DNA from: Escherichia phage SD6
Reading direction: 5' to 3' (one strand)
Length of the DNA: 40,091 bases
Sequence record: PQ821641
A model generated the notes under the pieces. The model did no database searches, was not told the DNA's origin, and saw only the letters and a program-made list of their open reading frames with translations. The position numbers and the translations under genes were made by a program. Positions 3,015 through 39,690 of this stretch are shown piece by piece (positions within the stretch are counted from its first letter, which is position 1; every line of letters starts with the position of its first letter).

Positions 3015-3034
3015 TTAACTATCACTATAGGACT
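3015..3034 (+). promoter_or_regulatory. Phage-RNAP promoter-like sequence directly upstream of the RNAP gene
   Basis: TTAACTATCACTATAGGACT shares the upstream half with the promoters at 26425 and 39668 and the ACTATAGG core with all others. Confidence 0.5.
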
Positions 3035-3100
3035 CAAGGTCTAAGACTCCAAGTGAAAGACCAAAGAGACTCTAAGTGAAAGACTAATAACAAGGACTTT
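3031..3100 (+). promoter_or_regulatory. Possible RNase III processing site (R1-like) in the RNAP leader
   Basis: Contains the GACTCAAGGT motif shared with the other putative RNase III hairpins, plus internal repeats CTAAGACTCCAAGTGAAAGAC / CTCTAAGTGAAAGAC. Confidence 0.3.
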
Positions 3101-3104
3101 AAGT

Positions 3105-5786
3105 ATGAGCGTCATCTCTATTGACAAACACGACTTCTCTGATGTGTCGAACGCTATTGAGCCGTTCAACCTGCTGGCTGACCATTACGGGCAAGACCTT
3201 GCAGTCAAACAGCTTCAACTTGAGCATGAGGCATATAGTGAAGGCGAGCGACGTTTCATCAAGAACCTTGAGCGCCAGACAGAGCGCGGGGAACTGGCAG
3301 ACAATCAGGTCGCCAAGCCTTTGATGCAGACTCTGGTCCCTAAGATTGCGCAAGCCGTCAAGGAGTGGCATGAAGGTCCAGACGGGAAGCTGTCAACCTC
3401 TCGTCCTAGCGTAGCGTTCACCATGTTGAGCACTGAAGAGAAGGCCGTCAAGGACCGCTCTCTGCGTATCTCTTGCGAGTCTGCTGCAGTTATTATACTG
3501 AAGGTCATCCTCTCCAAGCTGGTCAAGCCTGAAGGGATACCGATTACACCGATGGCCTCAGCGATAGGTCGCACACTTGAGGACGAAATCCGATTCGGTC
3601 GCATCCGTGACAAGGAGAAGGAGCACTTCAAGAAGGCGATAGCTGAGAACCTGAACAAGCGAGCTGGGGCATCCTACAAGAAAGCCTACATGCAAGCGGT
3701 TGAGGCCTCCATGCTGGAGCAGGGCCAACTGGAAGATGCGTGGGGTACTTGGAGTCCGACCGAGGCGGTACACGTTGGAATCAAGATGCTTGAGATTGTC
3801 ATCCAGTCCACACAACTGGTCGAGCTTAAGCGTTATGGTGCTGGCAATGCAGCGGCTGATGTTGAGATGGTCCACCTGTCAGACTTCTGGGTCAAGAAGA
3901 TGGCACAACGAGGATTCAGCCTTGCGGGTATCGCTCCAGTCTACCAACCTTGCGTCGTTCCACCTAAGCCGTGGACTGGTGTCGTAGGCGGGGGGTATTG
4001 GGCCAAAGGACGCAGACCTCTACCACTGATTCGCTTAGGGTCTAAGTCTGCGGTGGCACGTTACGAAGACGTGTACATGCCTGAAGTCTATGACGCTGTG
4101 AATATCATCCAGAATACACCTTGGAAGGTGAACAAGAAGGTTCTGGACGTGGTGAACATGGTTGAGAAGTTGAACAACACGCCTATTGATGACATCCCTC
4201 AGATGGAGCCATTGAAGCCTGAAGACTATGCGGGTGAGACTGAAGAGGAGCTCAAGGCATGGAAGAAATCTGCTGCTGGTATCTACCGCCGAGAGAAGGC
4301 CCGGCAGTCACGCAGATTGTCACTGAGCTTTATCGTTAACCAAGCGAACAAGTTCTCTCAGTTCAAGGCCATCTGGTTCCCATACAACATGGACTGGCGC
4401 GGTCGAGTCTACGCTGTACCGATGTTCAACCCTCAGGGTAACGACATGCAGAAGGGTCTCCTTACTCTGGCAGTCGGTAAGCCTATTGGTGCTGATGGTT
4501 TCAAATGGCTGAAGGTCCACGGTGCAAACTGCGCGGGTGTCGATAAAGTCACCTTCGAGGAGCGAATCAAGTGGGTGGAAGACAACCACGACAATATCAT
4601 GTCTGCTGCTAAGGCACCGATGGATAGTATTGAGTGGTGGGGCAAGCTAGACTCTCCGTTCTGCTTCCTTGCGTTCTGCTTCGAGTATGCTGGCGTAATG
4701 CACCACGGCTTGTCTTACTCCTGCTCGCTGCCGATAGCGTTCGATGGGTCCTGCTCTGGGATTCAGCACTTCAGCGCGATGCTTCGTGACCACATTGGTG
4801 GACATGCAGTGAACCTGACGCCATCCGGTAAGGTCCAAGACATCTACCGCATCGTGTCTGATCGCATTGAGGAGGAGCTTAAAGTCCTGCTGGTTAACGG
4901 TACTGACAACGAGGTGGTTACCCACGAGGACAAGAAAACTGGTGAGATTACCGAGCGTATCAAGCTAGGGACACGAGAGCTGGCCCGTCAGTGGCTGACC
5001 TACGGTATGTCACGCAAGGTGACTAAGCGTTCGGTCATGACTCTGGCCTACGGGTCGAAAGAGTATGGCTTCGCAGACCAAGTTTACGAGGACATCGTGA
5101 TGCCAGCGATTGACTCAGGGTCTGGAGCTATGTTCACTGAACCAAGCCAAGCATCTCGCTTCATGGCTAAGATGATCTGGGAAGCTGTGAGTGTGACCGT
5201 AGTTGCTGCGGTTGACGCGATGAAGTGGCTTCAAGGTGCTGCCAAGCTGCTGGCTGCTGAAGTGAAGGACAAGAAGACTGGAGAAATCCTGAAGCCTTGC
5301 CTTCCGGTACACTGGGTCACACCTGATGGTTTCCCGGTCTGGCAGGAATACCGCAAGAAGGATACCACTCGTCTGAATCTGATGTTCTTAGGTTCATTCA
5401 ACCTTCAACCTACGGTCAACAAAGGCGCGAAGAAAGAGCTGGATAAGCACAAGCAGGAGTCAGGCATTAGCCCGAACTTCGTCCACTCACAAGATGGTAG
5501 CCACCTACGCAAGACTGTAGTCCACACTCATCGCAAGTATGGCGTGATGTCATTCGCAGTGATTCATGATAGCTTTGGGACCATCCCTGCTGACGCTGAG
5601 TATCTATTCCGTGGTGTCCGTGAGACGATGGTCGAGACCTACCGCGACAACGATGTGCTGCTTGACTTCTATGAGCAGTTCGAATACCAGCTTCATGAGA
5701 GTCAGCGCGACAAGTTACCTGAGCTTCCGAAGAAAGGTAAACTGAATATCGAAGACATCTTGTCTTCAGACTTTGCATTCGCTTAA
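3105..5786 (+). CDS. T7-type single-subunit DNA-directed RNA polymerase (gene 1)
   Basis: 893 aa, collinear with T7 RNAP from the N terminus (FSD...FN.LADHYG) to the C-terminal SDFAFA, including the PCVVPPKPWTG and IHDSFGT motifs. Confidence 0.98.
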   Translation: MSVISIDKHDFSDVSNAIEPFNLLADHYGQDLAVKQLQLEHEAYSEGERRFIKNLERQTERGELADNQVAKPLMQTLVPKIAQAVKEWHEGPDGKLSTSRPSVAFTMLSTEEKAVKDRSLRISCESAAVIILKVILSKLVKPEGIPITPMASAIGRTLEDEIRFGRIRDKEKEHFKKAIAENLNKRAGASYKKAYMQAVEASMLEQGQLEDAWGTWSPTEAVHVGIKMLEIVIQSTQLVELKRYGAGNAAADVEMVHLSDFWVKKMAQRGFSLAGIAPVYQPCVVPPKPWTGVVGGGYWAKGRRPLPLIRLGSKSAVARYEDVYMPEVYDAVNIIQNTPWKVNKKVLDVVNMVEKLNNTPIDDIPQMEPLKPEDYAGETEEELKAWKKSAAGIYRREKARQSRRLSLSFIVNQANKFSQFKAIWFPYNMDWRGRVYAVPMFNPQGNDMQKGLLTLAVGKPIGADGFKWLKVHGANCAGVDKVTFEERIKWVEDNHDNIMSAAKAPMDSIEWWGKLDSPFCFLAFCFEYAGVMHHGLSYSCSLPIAFDGSCSGIQHFSAMLRDHIGGHAVNLTPSGKVQDIYRIVSDRIEEELKVLLVNGTDNEVVTHEDKKTGEITERIKLGTRELARQWLTYGMSRKVTKRSVMTLAYGSKEYGFADQVYEDIVMPAIDSGSGAMFTEPSQASRFMAKMIWEAVSVTVVAAVDAMKWLQGAAKLLAAEVKDKKTGEILKPCLPVHWVTPDGFPVWQEYRKKDTTRLNLMFLGSFNLQPTVNKGAKKELDKHKQESGISPNFVHSQDGSHLRKTVVHTHRKYGVMSFAVIHDSFGTIPADAEYLFRGVRETMVETYRDNDVLLDFYEQFEYQLHESQRDKLPELPKKGKLNIEDILSSDFAFA

Positions 5787-6003: not shown

Positions 6004-6077
6004 CAGACCTACAGTTACTGGCCTTGTGGCTGGGAGCACTAGCAGTATTCACTTTAATCCGACGCAGAAGAGGTTAA
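6000..6077 (+). CDS. Hypothetical small transmembrane peptide (25 aa)
   Basis: ATGA overlap with the upstream stop; hydrophobic core followed by RRRRG; weak call. Confidence 0.25.
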   Translation: MTDLQLLALWLGALAVFTLIRRRRG

Positions 6078-6100
6078 CCTAAACTATCACTATAGGATTA
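6078..6100 (+). promoter_or_regulatory. Phage promoter (phi1.1-like)
   Basis: CCTAAACTATCACTATAGGATTA matches the window-wide promoter consensus. Confidence 0.7.
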
Positions 6101-6145
6101 GACTCAAGGTCATGACTCAAAGTCGTGGCCTTCATGATTAACCCT
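6101..6145 (+). promoter_or_regulatory. Putative RNase III site (R1.1-like hairpin)
   Basis: GACTCAAGGTCAT...GTGGCCTTCATGATTA; AAGGUCA can pair with UGGCCUU; same architecture as the elements at 13588 and 37264; T7 has R1.1 at this position. Confidence 0.5.
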
Positions 6146-6171
6146 ATAACCTAAACAACTGGAGCTACAAC

Positions 6172-7712: not shown

Positions 7713-7753
7713 CCCAGTGGTCTTCTGACTGCTGGGATTCTTTGCTTTGTGTT
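7713..7753 (+). terminator. Putative early intrinsic terminator (TE-like) after the ligase gene
   Basis: Hairpin CCCAGUGG-loop-CUGCUGGG with G-U pairs, followed by the U-rich AUUCUUUGCUUUGUGUU; T7 TE lies at the equivalent position. Confidence 0.45.
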
Positions 7754-7784
7754 AGCAAGATATTGTCCGGCCGGCGGCCTGAAC

Positions 7785-7803
7785 CTAAACTATCACTGTA
7801 GGA
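7785..7803 (+). promoter_or_regulatory. Phage promoter, ACTGTAGG variant
   Basis: CCTAAACTATCACTGTAGGACAA. Confidence 0.6.
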
Positions 7804-7832
7804 CAACCATAACCGACCAAAGGAGAAACCTT

Positions 7833-8730: not shown

Positions 8731-8885
8731 CTGAGGTTGAGAAGAAATACATCGTGGAGCTTGAGGGTAGCGTTCAGTCCTTCGAGGTCCCGGTGTACGC
8801 AAAGTCTCTTGAAGAGGCTACCCTGAAGTCCCAAGAGTATGAGGACGCTGGGTTTGTGGTCGGACGGATTCGTCCTGAGACCTAA
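8727..8885 (+). CDS. gp2-like inhibitor of host RNA polymerase
   Basis: 52 aa; [14 protein letters not shown]...GFVVGRIRP matches T7 gp2 SFEVPIYAETLDEA...GFEVTRVRP; below the ORF-track size cut-off. Confidence 0.8.
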
Positions 8886-8902
8886 ACTATCACTGTAGGA
8901 CA
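8881..8902 (+). promoter_or_regulatory. Phage promoter, ACTGTAGG variant, upstream of the SSB gene
   Basis: CCTAAACTATCACTGTAGGACA overlapping the gp2 stop. Confidence 0.6.
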
Positions 8903-8943
8903 TACGTCCAGTTCGTAACTTTTAAATTAGGAGATTTACACCG

Positions 8944-10094: not shown

Positions 10095-10549
10095 TGACTA
10101 CCTGTAAAGACCTTGAAGTTGGAACACGTTACAGATTCTCAAAGAACACCCTGCTGAATAACCCCCAATTCACTGATGCTGTTTTCGAAAAGCGAGAAGA
10201 CCATAGCGTAATTGTGGAGAAGGGGTGGCATCCTGAGGATTACATCGGTGAGACTACCGGCTGGAATGGTCACGAGACCTACAGTGTAGAAGTTGTTGAA
10301 CATCCTCAAGTCCTGCCAGCCTCAAGCGTCCCTCCCGTCACCGTTAAACGTGAAGTCCTGACCATCAACAAGATTGGTGTAGGTCAGACGTTCATCGTCC
10401 ACGGTAAGCCTGACGAAGTGTACGTGAAGATTAGCAACTCTCACGTCTTCAACCATAAGTTGCTCCAGATGCACACGACTGACGCACATCGCTTCCAGTC
10501 ACATCTGAATCTGGTGGTAGTAGAGCTCGTTGTTTATAATGGAAAGTGA
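10091..10549 (+). CDS. Hypothetical protein (152 aa) inserted between endonuclease I and lysozyme
   Basis: Overlaps the endonuclease stop; no T7 counterpart at this locus; no recognisable family. Confidence 0.6.
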   Translation: MMTTCKDLEVGTRYRFSKNTLLNNPQFTDAVFEKREDHSVIVEKGWHPEDYIGETTGWNGHETYSVEVVEHPQVLPASSVPPVTVKREVLTINKIGVGQTFIVHGKPDEVYVKISNSHVFNHKLLQMHTTDAHRFQSHLNLVVVELVVYNGK

Positions 10550-10910
10550 CTGCATCGAGTGGGCTAAGAGTCGCAATAAGGATGGCTATGGTAGACGTAA
10601 ATTCCGTGGTCAATCTATGGGTGCTCATAGAGCAGCTTGGATAGAGACCAATGGTGCTATACCGGGAGGTCTTGTCGTAAGACACAAGTGTGATAACCGT
10701 GCATGCGTAAACATTGAGCACCTTGAGTTGGGGACTCAGGCAGAAAACATGATGGACTGCTCAGTACGCAGGACATTTAATTCAAAACTAACTGAAGATG
10801 ACGTTAAGGATATTCGCACCTCAAGCGAGACCCTTAAGTTTATGGCTGAAAAATACTCAGTAAGTGAGACAACCATAAGTCGAATCAGGAACCACAAGAG
10901 GTGGAAATAA
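10539..10910 (+). CDS. HNH homing endonuclease
   Basis: 123 aa from ATG 10539; HNH-type motif RHKCDNRACVNIEHLELGTQAENM; paralogous to the HNH at 29818. Confidence 0.85.
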   Translation: MESDCIEWAKSRNKDGYGRRKFRGQSMGAHRAAWIETNGAIPGGLVVRHKCDNRACVNIEHLELGTQAENMMDCSVRRTFNSKLTEDDVKDIRTSSETLKFMAEKYSVSETTISRIRNHKRWK

Positions 10911-11394: not shown

Positions 11395-11610
11395 ATGATT
11401 AAACTCATCGAATTTCTTGGTCGTCTGGTGGTGCGTGGCTATCGTCGTGCTGCGGTACTGGAACGAAAGGTAGAAAAGAAGACTGCTGACGGTGCGGCTG
11501 ATGCTGCTGCTCTGGCTGACAAGTTGGCCATCGCGTCACTGGAAGCTGGCATGAAGGCACGTCAAGCTGACACCAAAGCTGACCAGTTGGCTCAGTTCTT
11601 CAAAGACTAA
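11395..11610 (+). CDS. Hypothetical protein (71 aa)
   Basis: AAGGAG upstream of the ATG; Ala-rich, probably helical; lies between the lysozyme and primase genes. Confidence 0.6.
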   Translation: MIKLIEFLGRLVVRGYRRAAVLERKVEKKTADGAADAAALADKLAIASLEAGMKARQADTKADQLAQFFKD

Positions 11611-11626
11611 ACTATCACCTTAGGGA
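11607..11626 (+). promoter_or_regulatory. Phage promoter variant (ACCTTAGGG core) upstream of gene 4
   Basis: CTAAACTATCACCTTAGGGA differs from consensus at two core positions. Confidence 0.45.
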
Positions 11627-11675
11627 TGGGACCACGAGTCCTGTCCCTCTGTTCGCATTATTGATTAAGGAGTGA

Positions 11676-13379
<1,704 letters not shown>

Positions 13380-13420
13380 GCGTGATATAGCTGATTATAA
13401 GAATTTATGGAGGACCGTTA

Positions 13421-13585
13421 GTGCTAAAGAAACTTAAAGCTCGCTACCATCGGTTCATGTACAAATGGTGGAGCGATGAAGCAACCTGCCTGTCGAACAT
13501 TCTGGGAGACCAAAGGTTCGACTCTAAGGCATGGAAGAAAGCTAACCGGAAGTTTATGTATCACTTCTTGCGTACAGACTTCTAG
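13421..13585 (+). CDS. Hypothetical small protein (54 aa, GTG start)
   Basis: GGAGG about 6 nt upstream of a GTG; fills the gap between gene 4 and gene 5; weak call. Confidence 0.3.
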   Translation: MLKKLKARYHRFMYKWWSDEATCLSNILGDQRFDSKAWKKANRKFMYHFLRTDF

Positions 13586-13587
13586 GT

Positions 13588-13632
13588 CTAGACTCAAGGT
13601 CATTCACATCGAGTGGCCTTTATGATTAGACT
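13588..13632 (+). promoter_or_regulatory. Putative RNase III site (R4.7-like hairpin) upstream of the DNA polymerase gene
   Basis: TAGACTCAAGGTCAT-TCACATCGAG-TGGCCTTTATGATTAGACT, imperfect inverted repeat with the shared GACTCAAGGT motif. Confidence 0.5.
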
Positions 13633-13648
13633 AAACGGAGGATTAACC

Positions 13649-15820
13649 ATGTTTGACCTTAAGAGTATCTGGGGTTCTGACATCGAGACCAACGGTCTCC
13701 TTGATACAGTCTCCCAGTTTCACTGTGGGGTCCTGATTAACGCCGAGTCGAATGAGACCCTTAAGTATGGGGTAGCTCCGATGGTCGGTATCGTCGGCGG
13801 CTTCAAAGAGTATGTGCAGAAGGTGGAAGAGATTGCCGCATCACCTGATGGTATGCTGGTATTCCACAACGGTATCAACTATGACGTCCCGGCTATTGAC
13901 AAGCTGAAGCGTCTGTACTTTGGGAAACGATTTAACTTCCCGAAACACAAGATGATTGATACCTTGGTGCTGGGCCGCTTGATGTATCCCAACATTAAGT
14001 TCTCAGACATGGGTGCGGTGAAAGCTGGTCGTCTACCACCTAAGATGATGGGACGCCAGTCTCTTGAGGCTTGGGGCTATCGTCTAGGTGAGATGAAGGG
14101 TGAATACAAACACGATTACGTTGCCAAGTGCAAGGCCGAAGGTATCGAATATAAGTCTGGGGACGAATGGTTGTTCCCCTCTCAAGAGATGCTGGACTAT
14201 AACGTTCAAGACGTTGTGGTCACACTGGCGTTGTTCAAGAAGTTCCTGACTGACAAGTATTACTTCCAGTCTGAACAGTCCGCTTTCGAACAGATTTATG
14301 CGTTGCGCCTGGAACATGATGCTGCGTGGACCTGTGCGAAGATGGAGCGTAACGGCTATCCGATGAACACCGAGATGGTCGAAGGCTTATATCGTGAACT
14401 TACTGTCAAACGTGCGGAGTTGCTGGACAAGCTGCGCTCGACTTTCGGTAGCTGGTATGCACCAAAGGGAGGCAAGGAGTTCTTCAGGCATCCACGGACA
14501 GGTAAGGACCTTCCGAAGTATCCGAGAGTCGTGTATCCCAAGGTCGGTGGCATCTTTAAGAAGCCTAAGAACAAAGCTCAACGCTTAGGTCTTGAACCTT
14601 GTGAACTCGATACGCGAGACACGATGGAGGGAGCACCGTTCACGCCAATCACTTACGTTGAGTTTAATCCGGGAAGCGGAGATCACTTAGCGAAAGTCCT
14701 GATGGAGCGTGGGTGGGAGCCTGTGGACTTCACTGACACCGGGAAACCTGTAGTCGATGACGAGACGCTAGAACACGTTAAGTTACCAGACGCAGAGGCT
14801 CAGGCTTGCGTAGAGCTGGTCCGTGAGTATCTGGTAGTCCAGAAGCGCATCGGTCAGGCGGCTGAAGGTAAGAACGCATGGTTGAAACTTGTAGGTCCAG
14901 ACGGACGTATGCACGGTTCAATCAACCCATGCGGGGCAGTAACCGGACGTGCTACTCACAGTTCACCAAACATGGCTCAGGTCCCGGCTAACGGTGCTCC
15001 ATATGGTGAGACTTGCCGTGGTGCTTTCGGTGCAGCGTGGAACAAGAAGGATGGTAAGCCAGACCCTTGGATTCAAGTAGGTGTGGATGCCTCAGGTCTT
15101 GAGCTTCGTTGTCTGGGGAACCGAGCGGCTCCGTTTGATGGTGGTGCATATGCGAAGACTGTGGTCGAAGGTGACATCCACTGGGCCAACGCAGTCAACG
15201 CTGGGTTAGCACCTAACGTCCCACGCGATAAGTCGAACCACGACCATGAGGCTTTCCGTAACAACGCTAAGACGTTCATCTATGCGTTCCTGTACGGTGC
15301 AGGGGCCGCTAAGATTGGACTGATAGTCGGTGGCGGTAAGAAGGAAGGTTCAGCTCTCATGAAGAAATTCATTGAGGGTACACCAGCCATCAAAGACCTC
15401 AGGGAAGCTGTGAGTAATACGTTAATCTCAGACTCTAAGTGGGTGGACGGTGAGAACATCGTCAAGTGGAAACGCCGTTGGTTGCGTGGACTTGATGGTC
15501 GCCGTATCCACATCCGGTCGCCACACTCAGCACTTAACGCATTACTTCAAGGTGATGGTGCGGTAGTCTGTAAGCACTGGATGGTGCTGACGGAGAAGAA
15601 ACTTGAGGAAGCTGGCTACGGTAACGGCTGGGATGGTGACTTTGCGTTAATGGCTTGGATTCACGACGAATTACAGATTGCGTGTCGTACTCAGAAGATA
15701 GCCGAAGATGTCGTCCGTATTGCACAAGAGGCAATGCGCGAGGTAGGGCGCTTCTATAACTTCAAGTGTGAGCTTGATACGGAGGGTAAGATTGGACCAA
15801 CGTGGAAAGAATGTCACTGA
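13649..15820 (+). CDS. DNA polymerase (gene 5, family A)
   Basis: Collinear with T7 gp5 (SDIETN exonuclease motif, RQSLEAWGYRLGEMKGEYK, NAKTFIYAFLYGAG, WIHDE); ATG 13649 with GGAGG upstream is preferred over the ORF-track start at 13613. Confidence 0.97.
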   Translation: MFDLKSIWGSDIETNGLLDTVSQFHCGVLINAESNETLKYGVAPMVGIVGGFKEYVQKVEEIAASPDGMLVFHNGINYDVPAIDKLKRLYFGKRFNFPKHKMIDTLVLGRLMYPNIKFSDMGAVKAGRLPPKMMGRQSLEAWGYRLGEMKGEYKHDYVAKCKAEGIEYKSGDEWLFPSQEMLDYNVQDVVVTLALFKKFLTDKYYFQSEQSAFEQIYALRLEHDAAWTCAKMERNGYPMNTEMVEGLYRELTVKRAELLDKLRSTFGSWYAPKGGKEFFRHPRTGKDLPKYPRVVYPKVGGIFKKPKNKAQRLGLEPCELDTRDTMEGAPFTPITYVEFNPGSGDHLAKVLMERGWEPVDFTDTGKPVVDDETLEHVKLPDAEAQACVELVREYLVVQKRIGQAAEGKNAWLKLVGPDGRMHGSINPCGAVTGRATHSSPNMAQVPANGAPYGETCRGAFGAAWNKKDGKPDPWIQVGVDASGLELRCLGNRAAPFDGGAYAKTVVEGDIHWANAVNAGLAPNVPRDKSNHDHEAFRNNAKTFIYAFLYGAGAAKIGLIVGGGKKEGSALMKKFIEGTPAIKDLREAVSNTLISDSKWVDGENIVKWKRRWLRGLDGRRIHIRSPHSALNALLQGDGAVVCKHWMVLTEKKLEEAGYGNGWDGDFALMAWIHDELQIACRTQKIAEDVVRIAQEAMREVGRFYNFKCELDTEGKIGPTWKECH

Positions 15821-16634: not shown

Positions 16635-17080
16635 AGATACCTGAAAGTCTGAAAGAGCTGGTCCTTGACATGGGTGAGTGCGAGACGGAGCACAGAAAGT
16701 ACGATGAGTTCTACGCATCTTGGTCATACACCTTGACCGAGAAGGACGTTGAGGCATACGCCGAGTCTCCCTCTGATGCCTATGAGTGGCGTCCGTTCAT
16801 CGGGCTGACCATCGTAGCCAGTGGTATGTGGAGTGACAGCTGCGGTTCAGAGGTAAATGACTGGGTCGTATATCGCCAGGTTGAGAAGGAGACCGAAATA
16901 TCTTCCAACTTCTGGAGCTTGATGTCACACCTCAACTCAGAGGATAATGACATGGCCCATGAGTTCGCCAACAAATGGCTGAAGCCTGGGGTAACTCTGG
17001 AACGTATTGAGGAGCCGAAAGTTCCCTTGATGCCAGCTACGGTCGCTATGGCTACGGGAGGTCTAGACGATGGGTTCTGA
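16631..17080 (+). CDS. Hypothetical acidic protein (149 aa) at the gene 5.9 position
   Basis: ATG overlaps the gp5.7 stop; about 29 Asp+Glu versus 12 Lys+Arg (hand count); no recognisable family. Confidence 0.6.
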   Translation: MKIPESLKELVLDMGECETEHRKYDEFYASWSYTLTEKDVEAYAESPSDAYEWRPFIGLTIVASGMWSDSCGSEVNDWVVYRQVEKETEISSNFWSLMSHLNSEDNDMAHEFANKWLKPGVTLERIEEPKVPLMPATVAMATGGLDDGF

Positions 17081-18013: not shown

Positions 18014-18066
18014 ATCTAACCGATAGTCATATCCTATCAATCCAACAGTCATCCATAGGTGAAACA

Positions 18067-18088
18067 CTAAACTATCACTATAGGGACT
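18067..18088 (+). promoter_or_regulatory. Phage promoter (phi6.5-like)
   Basis: CTAAACTATCACTATAGGGACT. Confidence 0.7.
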
Positions 18089-18149
18089 TTAGGACCTAAG
18101 ATATGACTATAAGATAGACTTTAGTCTTAACTTAAAGAGGAGATTCAAG

Positions 18150-21874: not shown

Positions 21875-21876
21875 GA

Positions 21877-23176: not shown

Positions 23177-23182
23177 TTGAAA

Positions 23183-23218
23183 CCCCTTGGGTGCCTTCGG
23201 GTGCTTGAGGGGTTTTTT
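23183..23218 (+). terminator. Tphi-like intrinsic terminator after the capsid gene
   Basis: CCCCTTGGGTGCC-TTCG-GGTGCTTGAGGGG followed by TTTTTT; G-U-rich stem like T7 Tphi. Confidence 0.75.
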
Positions 23219-23239
23219 GCTTAAAGTGAGAGGAGACTT

Positions 23240-24042: not shown

Positions 24043-26400
24043 ATGCCGCTTATCACACAAAGCATAAAAAATCTTAAAGGTGGCATTAGCCAGCAGCCTG
24101 ATATACTGAGGTTCTCAGACCAAGGCGAGGCACAGGTTAACTGCTGGTCATCCGAGAGTGATGGCCTCCAGAAGCGCCCACCTACAGTCTTCAAGAGACG
24201 TCTTAACATCGACGTTGGGAGCAACCCTAAGTTCCATCTGATTAACCGTGACGAGCATGAGCAGTATTATATCGTGTTCAATGGGTCCAACATTCAGGTA
24301 GTTGACTTGAGTGGTAATCAATACTCAGTGTCCGGTGCGGTAGATTACGTTAAGTCCTCCAACCCACGAGATGACATCCGTGTCGTTACCGTGGCAGACT
24401 ATACGTTCGTCGTTAACCGTAAGGTTGTCGTCAAAGGTGGAAGCGAGAAGTCACACTCTGGTTATAACAGCAAAGCACGAGCTTTAATTAACCTGCGTGG
24501 TGGACAGTATGGTCGAACCCTTAAGGTAGGAATCAACGGAGGCGTTAAGGTTTCGCATAAGTTGCCAGCAGGTAATGATGCCGAGAATGACCCACCTAAG
24601 GTGGACGCTCAAGCCATTGGAGCAGCTCTGAGAGACCTTCTTGTTGCTGCCTATCCTACCTTCACGTTTGACCTTGGGTCTGGATTCCTGCTAATCACAG
24701 CTCCTTCAGGGACCGATATTAACTCAGTGGAGACGGAGGACGGCTACGCTAACCAGCTAATAAGCCCAGTCCTAGACACTGTGCAGACAATCTCTAAACT
24801 ACCTCTTGCCGCTCCTAATGGGTATATCATTAAGATTCAAGGTGAGACAAACAGTAGCGCCGATGAATACTACGTGATGTATGACTCCAACACTAAGACG
24901 TGGAAGGAGACAGTGGAGCCGGGAGTGGTAACTGGGTTCGATAACACCACAATGCCACATGCTCTGGTGAGACAATCTGACGGCTCCTTTGAGTTCAATA
25001 CTCTGGATTGGTCCAAGCGTGGTGCTGGTAACGATGACACAAACCCTATGCCTAGCTTCGTGGATGCTGCGATTAACGATGTGTTCTTCTACAGGAACAG
25101 ACTTGGGTTCTTGTCGGGTGAGAACGTAATCATGAGCCGTTCAGCCAGCTACTTTGCGTTCTTCCCTAAGAGTGTGGCGACACTGAGCGATGATGACCCT
25201 ATTGATGTAGCTGTAAGTCATCCTCGTATCTCAATCCTTAAGTATGCCGTTCCGTTTAGCGAGCAGCTACTACTTTGGTCGGATGAGGTTCAGTTCGTGA
25301 TGACAAGCTCTGGGGTCCTTACCTCGAAGTCTATCCAGCTTGATGTAGGATCAGAGTTTGCCTTAGGTGATAATGCCAGACCGTTCGCTGTAGGACGCTC
25401 AGTCTTCTTCTCAGCTCCTCGTGGGTCATTCACCAGCATTAAGCGATACTTCGCTGTAGCTGATGTGTCTGATGTGAAGGATGCCGATGATACAACTGGT
25501 CACGTATTGTCCTACATCCCTAACGGGGTGTTTGATATTCAAGGTACAGGGACTGAGAACTACATCTGCGTCAACTCTACAGGTGCATACAACCGTATCT
25601 ACATCTACAAGTTCTTGTTTAAGGACGGCGTACAGCTTCAAGCCTCTTGGTCACACTGGGAGTTCCCTAAAGATGATAAGATTCTGGCGTCTGCTTCTAT
25701 TGGCTCTACCATGTTCATCGTTCGTCAGCACCAAGGAGGGGTAGACATTGAGCACCTTAAGTTCATCAAGGAAGCAACTGACTTCCCGTCAGAGCCATAT
25801 AGACTACACATTGACTCCAAGGTGTTTATGGTAATTCCAATTGGCTCATATAATGCTGACACCTATAAGACTACGGTTGACATTGGTGCTGCTTATGGTG
25901 GCAACGCTCCGTCTCCCGGTCGGTACTATCTGATTGACAGTCAGGGTGCTTATGTGGACCTTGGGGACTTGACCAGTAACTCTACTGTGATTACCCTCAA
26001 CGGCGATTGGTCAGGACGTACAGTGTTCATCGGACGGTCCTATCTGATGTCCTACAAGTTCTCACGGTTCCTGATTAAGATTGAAGATGATAGTGGCACT
26101 CAGTCTGAAGACACTGGTCGTCTACAGCTTCGTCGGGCTTGGGTCAACTACAAGGACACTGGCGCTCTGAGACTCATTGTAAGAAACGGTGAGCGGGAGT
26201 TCGTGAATACCTTCAACGGGTACACCCTTGGTCAGCAAACCATCGGTACTACAAACATTGGTGACGGGCAGTATCGCTTCGCTATGAATGGTAACGCATT
26301 AACCACGAGTCTAACCTTAGAGTCAGACTATCCTACCCCAGTGTCCATCGTTGGGTGTGGCTGGGAGGCGTCATACGCTAAGAAAGCTCGTTCCGTCTAA
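24043..26400 (+). CDS. Tail tubular protein B (gene 12)
   Basis: 785 aa, collinear with T7 gp12 (SQSIKNLKGGISQQPDILR, HLINRDEHEQYY, DDDPIDVAVS, KYAVPFSE, GRLQLRRAWVNY, GCGWE). Confidence 0.97.
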   Translation: MPLITQSIKNLKGGISQQPDILRFSDQGEAQVNCWSSESDGLQKRPPTVFKRRLNIDVGSNPKFHLINRDEHEQYYIVFNGSNIQVVDLSGNQYSVSGAVDYVKSSNPRDDIRVVTVADYTFVVNRKVVVKGGSEKSHSGYNSKARALINLRGGQYGRTLKVGINGGVKVSHKLPAGNDAENDPPKVDAQAIGAALRDLLVAAYPTFTFDLGSGFLLITAPSGTDINSVETEDGYANQLISPVLDTVQTISKLPLAAPNGYIIKIQGETNSSADEYYVMYDSNTKTWKETVEPGVVTGFDNTTMPHALVRQSDGSFEFNTLDWSKRGAGNDDTNPMPSFVDAAINDVFFYRNRLGFLSGENVIMSRSASYFAFFPKSVATLSDDDPIDVAVSHPRISILKYAVPFSEQLLLWSDEVQFVMTSSGVLTSKSIQLDVGSEFALGDNARPFAVGRSVFFSAPRGSFTSIKRYFAVADVSDVKDADDTTGHVLSYIPNGVFDIQGTGTENYICVNSTGAYNRIYIYKFLFKDGVQLQASWSHWEFPKDDKILASASIGSTMFIVRQHQGGVDIEHLKFIKEATDFPSEPYRLHIDSKVFMVIPIGSYNADTYKTTVDIGAAYGGNAPSPGRYYLIDSQGAYVDLGDLTSNSTVITLNGDWSGRTVFIGRSYLMSYKFSRFLIKIEDDSGTQSEDTGRLQLRRAWVNYKDTGALRLIVRNGEREFVNTFNGYTLGQQTIGTTNIGDGQYRFAMNGNALTTSLTLESDYPTPVSIVGCGWEASYAKKARSV

Positions 26401-26424
26401 CTTATTGAATGGCCTATAGATTTA

Positions 26425-26447
26425 CCTTAACTATCACTATAGGGACT
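26425..26447 (+). promoter_or_regulatory. Phage promoter (phi13-like)
   Basis: CCTTAACTATCACTATAGGGACT. Confidence 0.7.
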
Positions 26448-29817: not shown

Positions 29818-30267
29818 ATGAAGAACGGGACAGCCAGTGAGAGACTGGCAGAACTGTCAGTAGCCGAAGAGTCTGGCTGTATCCGATTCACAGGCCACTT
29901 AGACGGAGAAGGATACGGAAGGATAATGGTGGCTAGGGTTAAGTATATGGCACATCGTCTCTCCTACTCCCTAAATAATGGGCCAATACCAGATGGCTAT
30001 GTTGTTAGGCATAAATGTGATAATCCATCATGCATAAATCCTGAACACCTTGAAGTAGGAACGCAGGCTGACAACATTGCAGATAAGGTTTCCAGAGGCC
30101 GACAGGCAAGAGGTAGTGGAGCAGGCAGAGCTATACTGACAGAGGAATCTGTTAGGGAAATACGCTCCAGTCCATTAAAAGTATCTGAGCTTTCCACCTT
30201 ATACGGGGTAAGCGTCGTTTCCATACGAAATATATTGAGGAGAAAGACATGGCAACACGTGGTGTAA
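29818..30267 (+). CDS. HNH homing endonuclease
   Basis: 149 aa; VVRHKCDNPSCINPEHLEVGTQADN; paralogous to the HNH at 10539; overlaps the gene 16 start by 19 nt. Confidence 0.85.
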   Translation: MKNGTASERLAELSVAEESGCIRFTGHLDGEGYGRIMVARVKYMAHRLSYSLNNGPIPDGYVVRHKCDNPSCINPEHLEVGTQADNIADKVSRGRQARGSGAGRAILTEESVREIRSSPLKVSELSTLYGVSVVSIRNILRRKTWQHVV

Positions 30268-33200: not shown

Positions 33201-34136
33201 TCTGACATCGTGGAGCATAGTCTTACTGGTAGTAAGCGTAAGTTCGATGACCGCTGGCTGAAGACCGCTGGTATCTCTGACGAGCAGTGGAAGGGTATTA
33301 AGTCCCTAATCCGTGAGTCAGTGACTCGTGGTCCAGACGGGAAGTACACCATCAAGGATAAGAAGGCGTTCAGTCAGGACCCAAGGGCTATGGACCTGTG
33401 GCGTATGGGTGACACCATCGCTGATGAAACGTTACTCCGCCCTCATAAGCTGTCCAACATGGACGCCAAGGCTTATGGCCCACTCGCTAAGACTGTCCTT
33501 CAGTTTAAGAACTTCGTCATCAAGTCCATCAATGGGCGAACCATGCGAACCTTCTACAACGCAACGAAGAACAACCGAGCGATGGACGCTGCCTTGTCCA
33601 CTGTGATGTCTATGGGTCTCGCTGGTATCTACTACATGGCTCAGGCGCACGTCAAGGCTTATGCTATGCAGGATGGTCGAGACCGTGATTACCTCAAGCA
33701 AGCTCTGGACCCGACGATGATTGGATATGCGGCTCTGTCCCGTAGCTCACATCTAGGTGGCCCACTTGGGGTCGCTAACATTCTGGGCGGCATCGCTGGG
33801 TATGAGGACACTAAGATGCTCCGCTCGTCTATCCTCCCTCGTTCACCTACAGAGAAGCCTGAACGTGCCATCTCGTATGGTGCGGCTACAAGTGACCCTG
33901 TGATGAATGTCGTAGGTAACTTCTTGGAGCAGGTTCCAGCTTTCGGCTATGCTGCTAACGTTGGTGCTTCGGCTTACAACTTGGCTGGCTACCTCAAGGC
34001 TGATACTCGTGTCAACGAGCGAGACTACATGACCGGGATGTATAACACGTTCCGTGAACTGGTCCCGAATGACCCGATTACCCAGAAGTTGCTGCTTGGA
34101 ACGTTTGAGGAGCAAGGTATCCACATCAAGGACTAA
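30249..34136 (+). CDS. Internal virion protein D (gene 16) with a non-canonical N-terminal domain
   Basis: 1295 aa; from about residue 180 collinear with T7 gp16 (GVDPLTYVP, RLEARETARN, SPTGMQSGASGK, ENPAMFG, GTYVPHVY, GLENNSFLEARNLFDSD, RVNGDIAIMAGTGKTT); the first ~130 aa (RNANPGNIR...RWAPPNEN) do not resemble the T7 N terminus as remembered. Confidence 0.95.
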   Translation: MATRGVRNANPGNIRKSKDQWEGAIGDDGEFVIFDSPESGVRALGKNLLSYGRQGYDSIEKIINRWAPPNENDTQAYIDSVVAATGIPATQSLDLSDPDTLSSLAQAISFHETGSRYDPEVYQQGVARALNGISPKTPPVSANVFDALTEGLKAKPKVDLGENLPTAAGLNIEGQAPEAPNESFGEMFYKATGETMQEREDRSTWFGFGAATEAEVKNSMVGVAIRAGQTEDSLDVIGDVFNPTRWNNHKWTREELDQIRNAGVLPQYYGVITGGSPQNLTELINLALENQKLDQEKAKAGTGAQLAAGVIGAGVDPLTYVPIAGQVGKGGKLVNKMFTVAAQSGALAGVSEMARTSVSGGDAHVAEAILGGALFGGGMTAIADGLGRALGRNTNEFAGPATRLEARETARNVDGQDLSRLPIQEGEQTFSHQGVKFADVPNEPGSVRLEDGSILIGENPLNPKTRQVFDEVIEPERAAAGVNLGGLTEIGLKLLRSENPEIRGVAADLVRSPTGMQSGASGKIGTTASDVFERLRAVDHRFYNDIDDAVTEALKDPYFQTAFWRDSGAFRQDIYQRVSMAIEDGSGNLKAELTPGELKVYDLLKNQFDAKREMMENPAMFGRPDAQSIFPGSRFKGTYVPHVYSKQMKELYIKELGSPEALQEAIKKSWLTSYASRPEVKKRVDEALLEADPTLTPEGLAAAVDKYANDKAYGISHTEQFERSSVMEENINGLVGLENNSFLEARNLFDSDMSIVLPNGQTFSVNNLREWDMDKIVPAYNRRVNGDIAIMAGTGKTTKEMKDLVETMMNKAGDDGKLKGEVSTLRDTLKILTGRARRDGADDAAFATVMRTMTDLSFFAKNAYMGVQNLTEIGGMLARGNVRAMLHGVPMFRDLAFRNKKVGASEIKDLHNVIFGKELDDSIRPSKQDVIDRLRAYSSLSKPTATALGTAKYYTGELAVRSPFTKVLNGTTNYLLDAGRQGFLSDIVEHSLTGSKRKFDDRWLKTAGISDEQWKGIKSLIRESVTRGPDGKYTIKDKKAFSQDPRAMDLWRMGDTIADETLLRPHKLSNMDAKAYGPLAKTVLQFKNFVIKSINGRTMRTFYNATKNNRAMDAALSTVMSMGLAGIYYMAQAHVKAYAMQDGRDRDYLKQALDPTMIGYAALSRSSHLGGPLGVANILGGIAGYEDTKMLRSSILPRSPTEKPERAISYGAATSDPVMNVVGNFLEQVPAFGYAANVGASAYNLAGYLKADTRVNERDYMTGMYNTFRELVPNDPITQKLLLGTFEEQGIHIKD

Positions 34137-34155
34137 ACTATCACTATAGGAAACG
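34133..34155 (+). promoter_or_regulatory. Phage promoter (phi17-like)
   Basis: CTAAACTATCACTATAGGAAACG overlapping the gene 16 stop. Confidence 0.7.
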
Positions 34156-34200: not shown

Positions 34201-36681
34201 ATGTCCACGATTACACAATTCCCTTCAGGAAACACTCAGTACAGGATTGAGTTCGACTACCTAGCCAGAACGTTTGTTGTTGTTACGCTGGTGAATAGCT
34301 CTAACCCTACCATGAACCGTGTACTTGAAGTGGGTCGAGATTACCGATTCCTTAATCCAACGATGATTGAGATGTTGGTTGACCAATCGGGTTTCGACAT
34401 CGTTCGTATTCACCGTCAGACTGGAACTGACTTAGTGGTAGACTTCAGGAATGGCTCAGTGTTGACAGCTAGTGACCTGACCAATTCAGAGCTTCAGGCT
34501 ATCCATATTGCAGAAGAAGGTCGAGACCAAACTGTTGACTTAGCGAAGGAATATGCAGATGCTGCTGGTAGCTCTGCTGGCAACGCTAAGGATAGCGCGG
34601 ACGAAGCACGACGAATCGCTGAGAGTATCAGGATCGCCGGTCTAATTGGCTATATTACCCGTCGCTCCTTCGAGAAAGGCTTCAACGTTACAACATGGAG
34701 CGAGGTCCTGCTGTGGGAAGCGGATGGTAGCTATTACCGCTGGGATGGTACACTTCCAAAGAATGTTCCTGCGGGTTCAACTCCAGATAGCACTGGTGGG
34801 GTTAAATTAGGTGCGTGGGTTAATGTTGGAGATGCCGCATTACGATCACAAATATCAAATCCTGACGGGGCTACTTTATATCCAGAATTACAAAGGGCCA
34901 GATGGCGTGATGTAGGTGATATACGAGGTTGGAACCTGAGGGGCGATGGCTCTGATGAAGCCGTTTTACTACAGCAAGTAATCAATACTGGAAATGTATT
35001 CATACCTAAAGGAATGATTATAAGCCACTCAACTGTAACAATTCCAAAGGGTACACAAATAAAACTTGCAGATGGAGCTGCTCTCAGGTCTTTGGTAAAA
35101 GATGCGCTTTCATTTGAAAAAGATGAAATGTTCAAATTGGCTTCCTCGGCGGCATCTGGAACCACAACCTTGACACTGGCATCAGCCCCAACTTACACAA
35201 ATTTTGACAAAGTAATGATTACGAGGTCGGAAGACACCAGTGACAGTTGGTATATCGCGAATGCCCAAAATCCAGACCAGTTAGGATACCAAGGTGAGGT
35301 TTTCCGCGTTCTGAGCATAGATGGAGCAACTATAACGTTGGCATCCCCAGTGCCATGGGAGCTAACAGTGGCGAATGCAGAGGTTCGAATTATTAAAGGA
35401 CCAACAACAAAAATAACCGGAGGAAATCTAATAAACGGGGCGACTGGCTCAAACTATATGTATCAGTCAAAAGGCGCCTCATTGATTGAGTTTGAGGGTA
35501 CTTCCTTCGATTACAACGGCAATGGTGGCAGTCGCCATGACACCTCCTACGGCATCAAATATTCTGGTACTCGACACAAAAATAGGGTCGGTAACGGGAA
35601 CGTATTTCTTGGGTATGGGTCAGTAGAGTGTACTATTGAAGGAACAGAGCAGAATGGTGGTGCAGGTGGAGATGCTCAGATCATTGTTTACGCTGGATGT
35701 AGAAACATAGTTTCTAAAGGTAATAAATGCTTCCCTGTCGCATCAGAAGCCGGAGTTTACATTGGTGCGAAGTGCATAGGCGGGGCTTCCGTTTCAGACC
35801 ATATTAAAGGCGGTAAATACGGGTTTATTTCAGCATTCGGCGTACAAAAATTTTCCGTCGATAAACCGGTGTTACTCGACCAGTTGAAAGCCGCTATATT
35901 CGCTGAGCAATGTCAAAATTTTGAGGTTGAATCGCCTGTAATCCGTTTTATTAAAACAGGACAACAGACTGTAGCGGCTATCCTGCTCAAAGATTCAGAT
36001 TCTTACGTTATTGACTGTAATATTCCTATCGATACCGGGGATGACGGCTACATCGTTAGCTCATATAGTTCGCCAGCGTATAACACTGTAGCAAGGAAAG
36101 GCATAAGCCTGAGAGCTTCAGGGAAAGGAAGTATTAACCTAAGCTCAGCGATGGTTAATTTCTCGTTAGTTGGCTGTGAAGTTACCGGGGATATAACGCT
36201 GTACAACGGGGATATAGGTTCGTCCGACGGCTTTATTAGTAATAATCGATGCCGATATATGGTTCTGCACTCACTTCAGAAGAGTGAGATTACTGATACG
36301 ACAATTACAGGAAACCAAAATGGATATGGAATACGACTGAGCGGGAACTCTAGATGGAACAATATCAGACGCAGCAAAATCAGTGGTGTAACCACAGCGT
36401 TCTTTGTTAACCCAGCACCCGCAAATATATACACGAATGCGCTTCATGAGGATAACATGATAGATTACTCAACAGTAACCACATTCGTATCATCGCCGAC
36501 TGGAACAACCACTCCAGCGACGGGCTTGTTAAACCCTGCACCGGTGAGGAACTTTTTTCTACCATCTACAGGTTGGCAAGATGCACCCACAACCAAGCGA
36601 ACGATTAGCGGCTGGAGGCATAAAGGCACAAATACCGGTGTGGCGACTGATTGGTTTACTATAGCTATCAATGAAGCATGA
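34201..36681 (+). CDS. Tail spike protein with a T7 gp17-type N-terminal anchor and a putative beta-helix depolymerase C-terminal part
   Basis: 826 aa; residues 1 to ~150 match T7 gp17 (FDYLAR.FVVVTL, DYRF, LVDF.NGS.L.A.DL, HIAEE.RD); the remainder is Gly/Asn/Ser/Thr-rich and repetitive, and the encoding DNA looks AT-richer by eye. Confidence 0.9.
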   Translation: MSTITQFPSGNTQYRIEFDYLARTFVVVTLVNSSNPTMNRVLEVGRDYRFLNPTMIEMLVDQSGFDIVRIHRQTGTDLVVDFRNGSVLTASDLTNSELQAIHIAEEGRDQTVDLAKEYADAAGSSAGNAKDSADEARRIAESIRIAGLIGYITRRSFEKGFNVTTWSEVLLWEADGSYYRWDGTLPKNVPAGSTPDSTGGVKLGAWVNVGDAALRSQISNPDGATLYPELQRARWRDVGDIRGWNLRGDGSDEAVLLQQVINTGNVFIPKGMIISHSTVTIPKGTQIKLADGAALRSLVKDALSFEKDEMFKLASSAASGTTTLTLASAPTYTNFDKVMITRSEDTSDSWYIANAQNPDQLGYQGEVFRVLSIDGATITLASPVPWELTVANAEVRIIKGPTTKITGGNLINGATGSNYMYQSKGASLIEFEGTSFDYNGNGGSRHDTSYGIKYSGTRHKNRVGNGNVFLGYGSVECTIEGTEQNGGAGGDAQIIVYAGCRNIVSKGNKCFPVASEAGVYIGAKCIGGASVSDHIKGGKYGFISAFGVQKFSVDKPVLLDQLKAAIFAEQCQNFEVESPVIRFIKTGQQTVAAILLKDSDSYVIDCNIPIDTGDDGYIVSSYSSPAYNTVARKGISLRASGKGSINLSSAMVNFSLVGCEVTGDITLYNGDIGSSDGFISNNRCRYMVLHSLQKSEITDTTITGNQNGYGIRLSGNSRWNNIRRSKISGVTTAFFVNPAPANIYTNALHEDNMIDYSTVTTFVSSPTGTTTPATGLLNPAPVRNFFLPSTGWQDAPTTKRTISGWRHKGTNTGVATDWFTIAINEA

Positions 36682-37263: not shown

Positions 37264-37312
37264 GTTAGACTCAAGGTCATTACTATGTGTAGTGGCCTTT
37301 ATGGTTAACACT
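37264..37312 (+). promoter_or_regulatory. Putative RNase III site (R18.5-like hairpin)
   Basis: GTGTTAGACTCAAGGTCAT-TACTATGTGT-AGTGGCCTTTATGGTTAACAC; outer GUGUUA/UAACAC and inner AAGGUCA/UGGCCUU can pair. Confidence 0.5.
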
Positions 37313-37362
37313 AACTAGTGGAGGAGACTCTACGTGAGATCTGATAAACCGGGAGGGCAACT

Positions 37363-37812: not shown

Positions 37813-39572
37813 GTAAAGACTTAGTGGCGCGTCAGGCGCTAATGACAGCACGTATGAAGGCAGACTTCGTGTTCTTCCTGTTCGTCCTGTGGAAAGCCTT
37901 GTCACTCCCAGTCCCGACTCGCTGTCAGATTGACATGGCGAAGAAACTATCGGCTGGGGACAACAGGCGTTTCATCTTACAGGCGTTCCGTGGTATCGGG
38001 AAGTCCTTCATTACGTGTGCATTCGTGGTCTGGAAACTATGGAACAACCCAGACTTGAAGTTCATGATTGTGTCGGCCTCAAAGGAACGAGCCGATGCTA
38101 ACTCCATATTCATCAAGCGAATCATCGACCTCATGCCTCAGCTTCAGGAACTCAAACCTAAGCAGGGACAACGAGATGCGGTTATCAGCTTCGACGTTGG
38201 ACCAGCCAAGCCGGACCACTCACCTTCGGTTAAGTCCGTTGGTATCACTGGTCAGTTGACTGGTAGTCGTGCTGACATCCTGATTGCCGATGACGTAGAG
38301 GTTCCTAACAACTCAGCGACTCAGGCTGCACGAGACCGTCTGTCAGAGCTTGTGAAAGAGTTCGACGCTATCCTGAAGCCGGGAGGTACAATAATCTATC
38401 TGGGTACTCCTCAGAACGAGATGACCCTGTATCGTGAGCTGGAAGGTCGTGGGTACACCACTACTATCTGGCCCGCTCGTTATCCACGCGACAGGAAGGA
38501 CTGGCAGTCTTACGGCGACCGTCTGGCTCCTATGCTTCAGGCAGAGCTGGAAGAGGACCCTGAGTCATTCTACTGGCGTCCGACCGACGAAGTCCGCTTC
38601 GATGATACTGACCTGAAGGAACGTGAGCTGTCCTACGGTAAAGCTGGCTTCGCTCTACAGTTCATGCTTAACCCGAACCTGAGTGATGCCGAGAAGTACC
38701 CTCTGAAGCTCCGTGACCTTATCGTAGCAGACTTGGACCCAGCGTCCAGCCCAATGGTCTACCAATGGTTGCCAAACCCTCAGAACAAGCGTGAGGACGT
38801 TCCTAACGTTGGACTCATGGGTGACTCATACCACACGTATCAGACTGTAGGTTCTGCCTTCAGTTCGTACACCCAGAAGATTCTGGTCATTGACCCTAGT
38901 GGTCGTGGTAAGGATGAAACTGGTTATGCTGTACTGTATCAGCTAAACGGCTACATCTTCGCTATGGAAGTTGGTGGTATGCGTGGGGGTTATGAAGACT
39001 CTACGCTGGAAGCCTTGGCTAAGATCGGTCGTAAGTGGAAGGTCAACGAGTACGTCATTGAAGGTAACTTCGGTGATGGTATGTACCTTGAGTTATTCAA
39101 GCCTGTAGCTGCCCGTATTCATCCTGCTGCTGTAACTGAAGTGAAGAGTAAGGGTCAGAAAGAACTCCGCATCTGTGACGTTCTGGAGCCTATCATGGGG
39201 TCTCACAGACTTATCGTTAACGCTGCTGCTATCGTCCAAGACTACCAGTCAGCCTCTGATAAGGATGGTGTTCGTAACCCTATCTACTCTCTCTTCTACC
39301 AGATGACACGTATATCTCGTGAACGTGGGGCCTTGGCACACGATGACCGACTTGATGCGCTGGCTATCGGTGTACAGTTCTTCGTTGAGTCTATGGCTAA
39401 GGATGCCAACAAAGGCGAACGTGAAGTCACTGAGGAGTGGCTGGAGGAACAGATGGAGAACCCACGGAAAGGATTCGAGTCCATCCACACTGAGTTCTGG
39501 GACAATGGGGTCCGGGTAACTCACGATACGGACGACGAGCTTGGGCTAGGGTCATACGTTACGTTTCACTAG
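37809..39572 (+). CDS. Terminase large subunit (gene 19)
   Basis: 587 aa, collinear with T7 gp19 ([78 protein letters not shown]); TTG start with AAGGAGGTG about 5 nt upstream. Confidence 0.95.
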
Positions 39573-39667
39573 CTGAATGAATAACTATAGGTGAAAGCTG
39601 CATGAATACGCAGTTAGTAACCTATGGTTACTACCAGTCTAACCTACTGTTTTACAAGGAGTTTGGA

Positions 39668-39690
39668 CTTAACTATCACTATAGGGAAGA
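39668..39690 (+). promoter_or_regulatory. Phage promoter near the right end (phiOR-like)
   Basis: CTTAACTATCACTATAGGGAAGA downstream of the terminase gene. Confidence 0.65.

Follow-up and report, generated by a model that had tools for sequence, protein, structure and literature searches.

The genome record of bacteriophage T7 contains 17 annotated promoters for the RNA polymerase encoded by the phage itself. T7-like phages carry about 13 such promoters per genome on average (PMC11880802). The promoter repeat of one member of the genus Kayfunavirus has been published as CTWAACTATCACTATAGG (2026, PMC13298934), and the promoter and RNA polymerase of phage K1F are in use as an orthogonal expression system. 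The record of a further Kayfunavirus, EcoDS1 (NC_011042), is annotated with eleven phage promoters, the terminators TE and Tφ, and additionally three host promoters. The sequence analyzed here, the 40,091-base-pair record PQ821641 of Escherichia phage SD6 (the whole of which is referred to as the window), is a complete, circularly permuted genome of a Kayfunavirus (K1F-like, T7 group), in which every long open reading frame (ORF) is on the plus strand. It contains eleven copies of a 23-base-pair repeat, and these are exactly the eleven elements that are annotated as phage promoters in EcoDS1, at the same positions and together with TE and Tφ. The eleven repeats are interpreted, with a probability of roughly 0.93, as the complete promoter set of the T7-like RNA polymerase of the phage, belonging to the K1F specificity class. 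The interpretation is based on the sequence of the repeats, the statistics of their occurrence, their orthology and conservation, and their covariation with the polymerase.

The sites are numbered by the G at position +1, and each promoter spans positions −17 to +6. All eleven are located on the plus strand (Table 1) and share the core AACTATCACT(A/G)TAGG. The exact sequence AACTATCACTATAGG is present in eight of the sites, the variant CACTGTAGG in two (+1 at 7801 and 8898), and CACCTTAGGG in one (11623). The consensus for positions −17 to +3 is (A/C)CT(A/T)AACTATCACTATAGG(G/A), with transcription predicted to start at the G of TATAG. Of the 23 positions, 16 are invariant, and all the sites have ACTATC at positions −12 to −7 and GG at positions +1 and +2. 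When up to three mismatches are allowed, the core has 11 matches in the window compared to 1.12 expected, and 100 shuffled sequences provide at most 4. An original prediction, made by eye from the sequence, had listed eleven sites; all of them exist on the plus strand, with the listed starts positioned 0–4 nucleotides upstream of the shared core. The consensus that it spelled out, AACTATCAC(T/G)TAGG, has no literal match in the window, as one base had been dropped; however, the core AACTATCACTATAGG is real. Its counts of variants, two CACTGTAGG and one CACCTTAGGG, were accurate, and so was its division of the sites into two upstream classes: CTTAACT is present in three sites (3030, 26442, and 39684) and CTAAACT in the remaining eight. 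The choice between A and T at position −14, which separates the classes, is site-specific and mostly kept in relatives.

The repeats have the properties of promoters of T7-group RNA polymerases. They are elements of about 23 base pairs, which are co-oriented, more numerous than expected by chance, encoded together with a T7-like RNA polymerase, and placed at positions that match curated promoters. The core CACTATAGG is of the CACTATAG type, which is typical of T7-group promoters with initiation at G. The sites are located in intergenic gaps or within the last codons of the preceding gene, oriented with the genes and just 5' of gene starts, and the ORFs following them encode RNA polymerase, ligase, gp2.5, primase/helicase, gp6.5, scaffolding protein, capsid protein, gp13, and tail fiber. 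Ten of the eleven sites correspond in position to T7 promoters: φ1.1, φ1.5/1.6, φ2.5, φ3.8, φ6.5, φ9, φ10, φ13, φ17, and φOR. T7 has the same 23-base-pair architecture, the CACTATAGG core at consensus sites, G at position +1, and GGGAGA at φ10. In T7, promoters that stray from the consensus precede DNA-metabolism genes, virion genes are preceded by consensus promoters, and the window may follow a similar division. By contrast, positions −12 to −8 are CGACT in T7 and ACTAT in the window, the promoters differing chiefly at −12 to −9 (CGAC and ACTA, respectively), and residue 756 of the polymerase is arginine in T7 and asparagine in the window. The T7 promoters without a counterpart in the window are φOL, φ1.3, φ4c, φ4.3, φ4.7, and the second members of φ1.1A/B and φ1.5/1.6, whereas the window has an extra promoter upstream of gene 1. 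The promoter layout is also the same in T3; however, T3 promoters have CC instead of TA at positions −10 and −9 and T instead of C at position −16, and T3 has φOL but lacks a promoter upstream of gene 1.

The polymerase encoded by gene 1 shares 99% sequence identity with that of K1F and 64% with that of T7, and its specificity loop, DTTRLNLMFLGSFNLQPTV, is identical to the loop of the K1F enzyme. Residues at T7 positions 748, 756, and 758 have been reported to be dominant for the specificity of T7-like polymerases (PMC11880802). These residues are N, N, and Q in the window, N, R, and Q in T7, and D, R, and Q in Shigella phage SFP21B, another Kayfunavirus. Grafting the K1F loop into T7 RNA polymerase enables it to drive a T7 promoter with the K1F consensus at positions −12 to −7, orthogonally to T7 and T3 (PMC3458549), and, in vivo, the full-length K1F polymerase is specific when paired with P_K1F (PMC12218169). 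The combination of ACTATC with a K1F-type loop, and the covariation of promoters with the loop across relatives, place the sites of the window in the K1F specificity class. The covariation is evident from SFP21B, whose polymerase is 89% identical to that of the window at the protein level. Each of the eleven positions has an orthologous promoter in SFP21B (Table 1), but all of these are T3-like, with the sequence AAACCCTCAC (AAACCCTCACTATAGG) in place of the window form AAACTATCAC. Position −16 is changed from C to T and position −9 from A to C in all eleven sites, and position −10 is changed from T to C in ten, with A in φ4. The sites of SFP21B have changed together with the polymerase loop, and therefore the sites are in all likelihood read by the polymerase, which is the strongest argument for their identity as promoters. 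Judging from the sequences compared, SFP21B is a case of a concerted switch of polymerase and promoter specificity within one genus, the principle of which has already been published.

Repeats dispersed along a phage genome could instead be sites of recombination or packaging, or targets of homing endonucleases. The genome encodes two HNH endonucleases, and the identification of the repeats as promoters in this particular phage is derived from sequence, both of which leave some room for such a function. Nevertheless, it is extremely improbable, because the repeats share their core with the consensus promoters of the annotated T7 record, they are oriented with the genes and placed just 5' of gene starts, their positions match the annotated promoters of T7 and EcoDS1, they covary with the specificity loop of the polymerase, and promoters of the K1F class are experimentally active.

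Table 1 Promoters, terminators, and related features of the window, and the orthologous sites of SFP21B.
Feature	Coordinates	Strand	+1	Score (bits)	Details
φ1	3013–3035	+	3030	34.2	ACTTAACTATCACTATAGGACTC; EcoDS1 phi 2244–2266
Gene 1, single-subunit RNA polymerase	3105–5786	+			893 amino acids; phrog_414, E = 0
φ1.1 equivalent	6078–6100	+	6095	34.3	EcoDS1 6034–6056
TE-like early terminator	7713–7736	+			Directly 3' of ligase gene; z −3.9; none of 200 shuffles folds equally well
φ1.6 (T7 φ1.5/1.6)	7784–7806	+	7801	34.0	CACTGTAGG (G at −3); EcoDS1 phi1.6 7725–7747
φ2.5	8881–8903	+	8898	34.6	CACTGTAGG; upstream of gene 2.5, single-stranded DNA-binding protein (phrog_112)
φ4 (T7 φ3.8 position)	11606–11628	+	11623	30.3	CACCTTAGGG; leave-one-out score 24.1
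φ4.7-like promoter position	13575–13588	+			12-nucleotide gap relative to CHRF_20041 and SFP21B; promoter core missing
φ6.5	18066–18088	+	18083	37.0	First late promoter (class III-like); EcoDS1 phi6.5 16991–17013
φ9	20888–20910	+	20905	37.2	Upstream of scaffolding gene 9 (phrog_1052); EcoDS1 phi9
φ10	21876–21898	+	21893	34.9	Ahead of major capsid gene 10 (phrog_267)
Tφ-like terminator	23179–23215	+			After gene 10; 17-pair hairpin and six U; −29.4 kcal/mol, z −2.7; EcoDS1 orthologue annotated as terminator
φ13	26425–26447	+	26442	35.8	CTTAACT; gene 13 is phrog_308; EcoDS1 phi13
φ17	34132–34154	+	34149	36.6	Upstream of tail fiber gene 17; EcoDS1 phi17
φOR	39667–39689	+	39684	35.0	CTTAACT; downstream of gene 19, ahead of gene 19.5; EcoDS1 phiOR 38500–38522
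SFP21B (L124) sites	4360, 11645, 17121, 20833, 24345, 26195, 27052, 29041, 35451, 38270, 39246				RNA polymerase gene 20909–23575

A weight matrix was built from positions −17 to +6 of the eleven sites and used to scan both strands of the window. The sites score 30.3–37.2 bits (24.1–35.9 bits in leave-one-out scoring), whereas the next-best site reaches 12.0 bits, which is within the range of shuffled sequence (up to 13.1 bits) and leaves a gap of 18 bits below the eleventh site. Only 12 positions on the two strands exceed 8 bits. The same procedure applied to T7 recovers its 17 annotated promoters, with scores of 26.5–40.4 bits and no other site of at least 10 bits. The T7 promoter matrix has no match of at least 8 bits in the window, and the K1F-type matrix has a single chance match of 9.6 bits in T7. 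In the intervals where the T7 promoters are missing from the window, the best scores are 6.7 bits at the left end (φOL), −10.1 bits for φ1.3, −3.1 bits inside gene 4 (φ4c), and −7.5 bits in the gap between genes 4 and 5 (13379–13660, φ4.3 and φ4.7). No promoter-like site was found by the scan across the artificial junction of the ends of the window. Since there are no intermediate scores and the procedure works on T7, the missing promoters are absent rather than hidden. The predicted promoter set is thus eleven, and the T7 promoters that appear to be missing are truly absent.

The original prediction correctly described a set of phage RNA polymerase promoters that is smaller than that of T7, and the scan of the whole window with a matrix of the eleven sites, which it had proposed as a check, did not detect additional consensus sites. 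It had left undecided whether the missing promoters are genuinely absent or too divergent to be noticed; of the two, absence is supported and divergence is not, as nothing scores between 30.3 and 12.0 bits and the eleven sites recur in five relatives. It had also pointed out that genuine absence would alter how the expression of genes 1.3 to 4 is driven; however, that region retains φ1.1, φ1.6, φ2.5, and φ4, and the main difference from T7 is in genes 4 to 6.

The promoters could nonetheless number more than eleven, if the extra ones, at positions resembling φOL, φ1.3, φ4c, φ4.3, or φ4.7, were too divergent for recognition. Weak promoters of T7 itself stray from the consensus, with φ4.7 scoring 26.5 bits compared to a maximum of 40.4 bits, and a conserved near-match to the promoter sequence follows φ6.5. 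However, additional promoters of this kind are very unlikely when the 18-bit gap and the low scores of the orthologous intervals are considered. Furthermore, the curated annotation of EcoDS1 also lists eleven, the window junction contains no site, and where relatives have an extra promoter, the window has a 12-nucleotide gap and not a diverged sequence. The near-match, CCTAAGATATGACTATAAGATAG, is at 18095–18117 (its +1 would be 18112), 29 nucleotides downstream of φ6.5. It departs from the consensus at positions −12, −11, −7, and +1, which include positions contacted by the specificity loop, and all six K1F-type relatives carry exactly the same sequence. It was not counted as a promoter: its score approaches 24 bits only when it is itself included in an iterative matrix, and its unbiased score is 12.0 bits. 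CCTAAGATATGACTATAAGATAG may represent a tandem promoter that has decayed, or else a part of the leader of gene 6.5.

The same eleven orthologous sites are present in each of K1F, KM02, Vec13, EPr2, and EcoDS1. Promoters were counted in whole GenBank genomes and not in the viral contigs matched by an exact search for the core, which provided fragmentary loci, and base-level conservation was evaluated in six K1F-type relatives and SFP21B. The promoter cores (−17 to +3) are 98–99% identical to those of the six K1F-type relatives, compared to 88–93% for 100-nucleotide flanks, and on these alignments the higher identity of the cores is a mark of selection on the sites. Nine of the eleven K1F sites are identical to those of the window from −17 to +3, and the other two, φ1.6 and φOR, show one or two base differences; K1F is nevertheless a separate isolate with a different tail fiber. 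EcoDS1 differs from the window in one base at position −17 in both φ1.1 and φ4, and has G at −12 and A at −3 in φ1.6, whereas the flanks are about 91% identical. On the genomes compared, eleven is the norm for Kayfunavirus and is already annotated as such; it is an ordinary finding, close to the average of about 13 in T7-like phages.

Several points weigh against the eleven repeats being a complete set of working promoters. Initiation at the sites, their relative strengths, and a feedback through φ1 are, for this phage, inferred from the sequence. A matrix derived from the eleven sites would miss any promoter with almost no likeness to the consensus. The weakest of the sites, at 11623, with a leave-one-out score of 24.1 bits, is altered in the melting region at −4 and −3 and could be very weak. 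Finally, the lack of a promoter ahead of gene 5 may be either a loss or the ancestral state.

By analogy with T7, the host RNA polymerase would read the early region up to TE, after which the phage RNA polymerase would start at the eleven sites and proceed rightward through the middle and late genes, with the Tφ-like terminator predicted to stop it partly. The promoters φ1.1, φ1.6, φ2.5, and φ4 would serve the DNA-metabolism genes; three of the four are substituted at position −4 or −3 and are presumably weaker. The promoters φ6.5, φ9, φ10, φ13, and φ17 would serve the virion genes, with φOR positioned near the right end, and φ1 would let the polymerase transcribe its own gene, resulting in positive feedback. 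The early terminator is annotated at the same place in T7, T3, and EcoDS1, and φ1.6 is located just past it. The T7 class III initial sequence GGGAGA is present only in φ10, which is identical in all six K1F-type relatives. A scan for the σ70 consensus did not identify an excess of matches over shuffled sequences, and so host promoters at the left end are not callable by that consensus.

Each of the three promoters with variant cores precedes DNA-metabolism genes, and the cores of φ1 and φ1.1 match the consensus. The G at position −3 of φ2.5 is kept in all seven relatives, including SFP21B, and the CACCTTAGGG sequence of φ4 is kept in all six of the K1F type. At positions −12 and −3 of φ1.6, the bases are A and G in the window but G and A in the six K1F-type relatives, so that each form has one off-consensus base. 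The conservation of the variant state, together with the parallel to the off-consensus class II promoters of T7, suggests that the variants are maintained weak promoters. The φ1.6 sequence of the window is the same as that of its own φ2.5 from −17 to +5, with the sole difference at +6, and an exchange between the two sites by gene conversion is possible. The promoter with the lowest score in the set, φ4, is the only one ahead of genes 4 to 6, starting with the primase/helicase gene 4 (phrog_239). This 6.5-kilobase segment would thus be served by a single off-consensus promoter, plus read-through from upstream.

A twelfth promoter is present in the corresponding region of some relatives. CHRF_20041 (Kayfunavirus SH4) and SFP21B have an extra promoter between genes 4 and 5, visible as ...CTATCACTGTAGGA... 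in the alignment, with the gene 5 promoter at 32709 on the minus strand of record L127 and at 31399 in SFP21B. In the window, K1F, and EcoDS1, the 12-nucleotide gap covers the promoter core, but both flanks are kept, including an RNase III-like hairpin at 13589–13635. Among contigs from IMG/VR, nine have the promoter form and eleven the gapped form.

The site φ1 is located in the 97 nucleotides that separate an early ORF, whose stop is at 3007, from the ATG of gene 1, and the +1 position of the site is 75 nucleotides upstream of the ATG. It is identical in K1F, KM02, Vec13, EPr2, and EcoDS1, and is present in all the Kayfunavirus genomes examined, with SFP21B having its own T3-like form. By contrast, no phage promoter is annotated at this position in the records of T7, T3, K11, and Kvp1, and φOL is annotated at the left end of T7, T3, and K11. 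No terminator was detected between 3030 and gene 1. Transcripts from φ1 must therefore include gene 1, and autoregulation of the polymerase is the simplest reading. We infer a feedback between φ1 and gene 1 from this arrangement, which is visible in annotation; no functional study of such a loop was found in the literature searched. A broader proposal is slightly favored: in Kayfunavirus genomes, including that of this phage, a full-consensus φ1 before gene 1, combined with the lack of φOL, would let the polymerase amplify itself after host shut-off, with φ1 being maintained by selection while the promoter content of the replication block is still changing, since about half of the genomes sampled have a promoter before gene 5.

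Alternatively, the site at 3030 might mainly take the place of φOL, either in genome entry or in the priming of replication, without significant autoregulation. In T7, secondary replication origins are linked to φOL and φOR. The left end of the window lacks φOL, with a best score there of 6.7 bits, and φ1 resembles φOR over an extended upstream region, with 83% identity over 47 nucleotides. However, transcripts from 3030 necessarily carry the ribosome-binding site and ATG of gene 1, with no detected terminator in between, and a role in priming or entry is compatible with one in the expression of gene 1. Substitution for φOL as the main function is therefore unlikely, and autoregulation of gene 1 is preferred. 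The similarity is not restricted to φ1 and φOR: all three CTTAACT-class sites resemble each other for 30 nucleotides further upstream (2985–3031, 39639–39685, and 26397–26443), φ1 being 70% identical to φ13. This suggests duplication or exchange among the three sites.

The records nearest to the window, which include Escherichia phages KM02, vB_EcoP_F, and Vec13, are about 93% identical to it in nucleotide sequence across 85–90% of its length. The window is permuted by 174 nucleotides when compared with the physical ends of Vec13: positions 1–174 match the sequence immediately before the right repeat of Vec13, and the terminal repeat is present in a single copy, from position 175 to about 360. 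A perfect 16-nucleotide tandem repeat, ACCTACAGTCTCACTA, is located just inside the left end (414–458, 2.8 copies). Scans of the whole window against Rfam and for tRNAs did not provide any match. Four similar hairpins with a GACTCAAGGTC...GGCCTT stem are located at 2309–2357, 6098–6146, 13589–13635, and 37265–37313, with fold z-scores of −2.3 to −3.7 and no match in Rfam. The family is placed in the early region and before genes 1.1, 5, and 18.5, which we take to be about the positions of the RNase III sites of T7. The hairpin downstream of φ1.1 is followed by genes 1.1, 1.2, and 1.3 (ligase), and R1.1 is annotated in the record of T3 immediately 3' of phi1.1.

Two ORFs of the window encode HNH endonucleases (Pfam HNH_3), one at 10530–10910, between the gene 3 region and the amidase gene, and the other at 29818–30267, between genes 15 and 16. 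By their sequence, both look like homing endonucleases. EPr2 also has an HNH endonuclease ORF at the position between genes 15 and 16. The tail fiber protein (34201–36681) begins with the T7 N-terminal adaptor domain, which is followed by Tail_spike_N, and there is no Pfam match past residue 211. No endosialidase match was found in the tail fiber, and the region is poorly matched at the nucleotide level in relatives. Therefore, the receptor specificity of the phage probably differs from that of K1F.

The results fix the transcription map of the phage as eleven promoters, TE, and Tφ, and establish that the count below 17 is a trait of the genus and not a failure of detection; beyond correct annotation, this is of little importance. 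The switch of eleven promoters and two polymerase residues in SFP21B illustrates the co-evolution of polymerase and promoters within one genus. Close relatives differ in whether they carry the gene 5 promoter, which provides a natural test of the share of internal promoters in class II expression. With gene 1 positioned behind its own promoter, Kayfunavirus genomes have a natural autogene arrangement, which is without parallel in T7 and T3.

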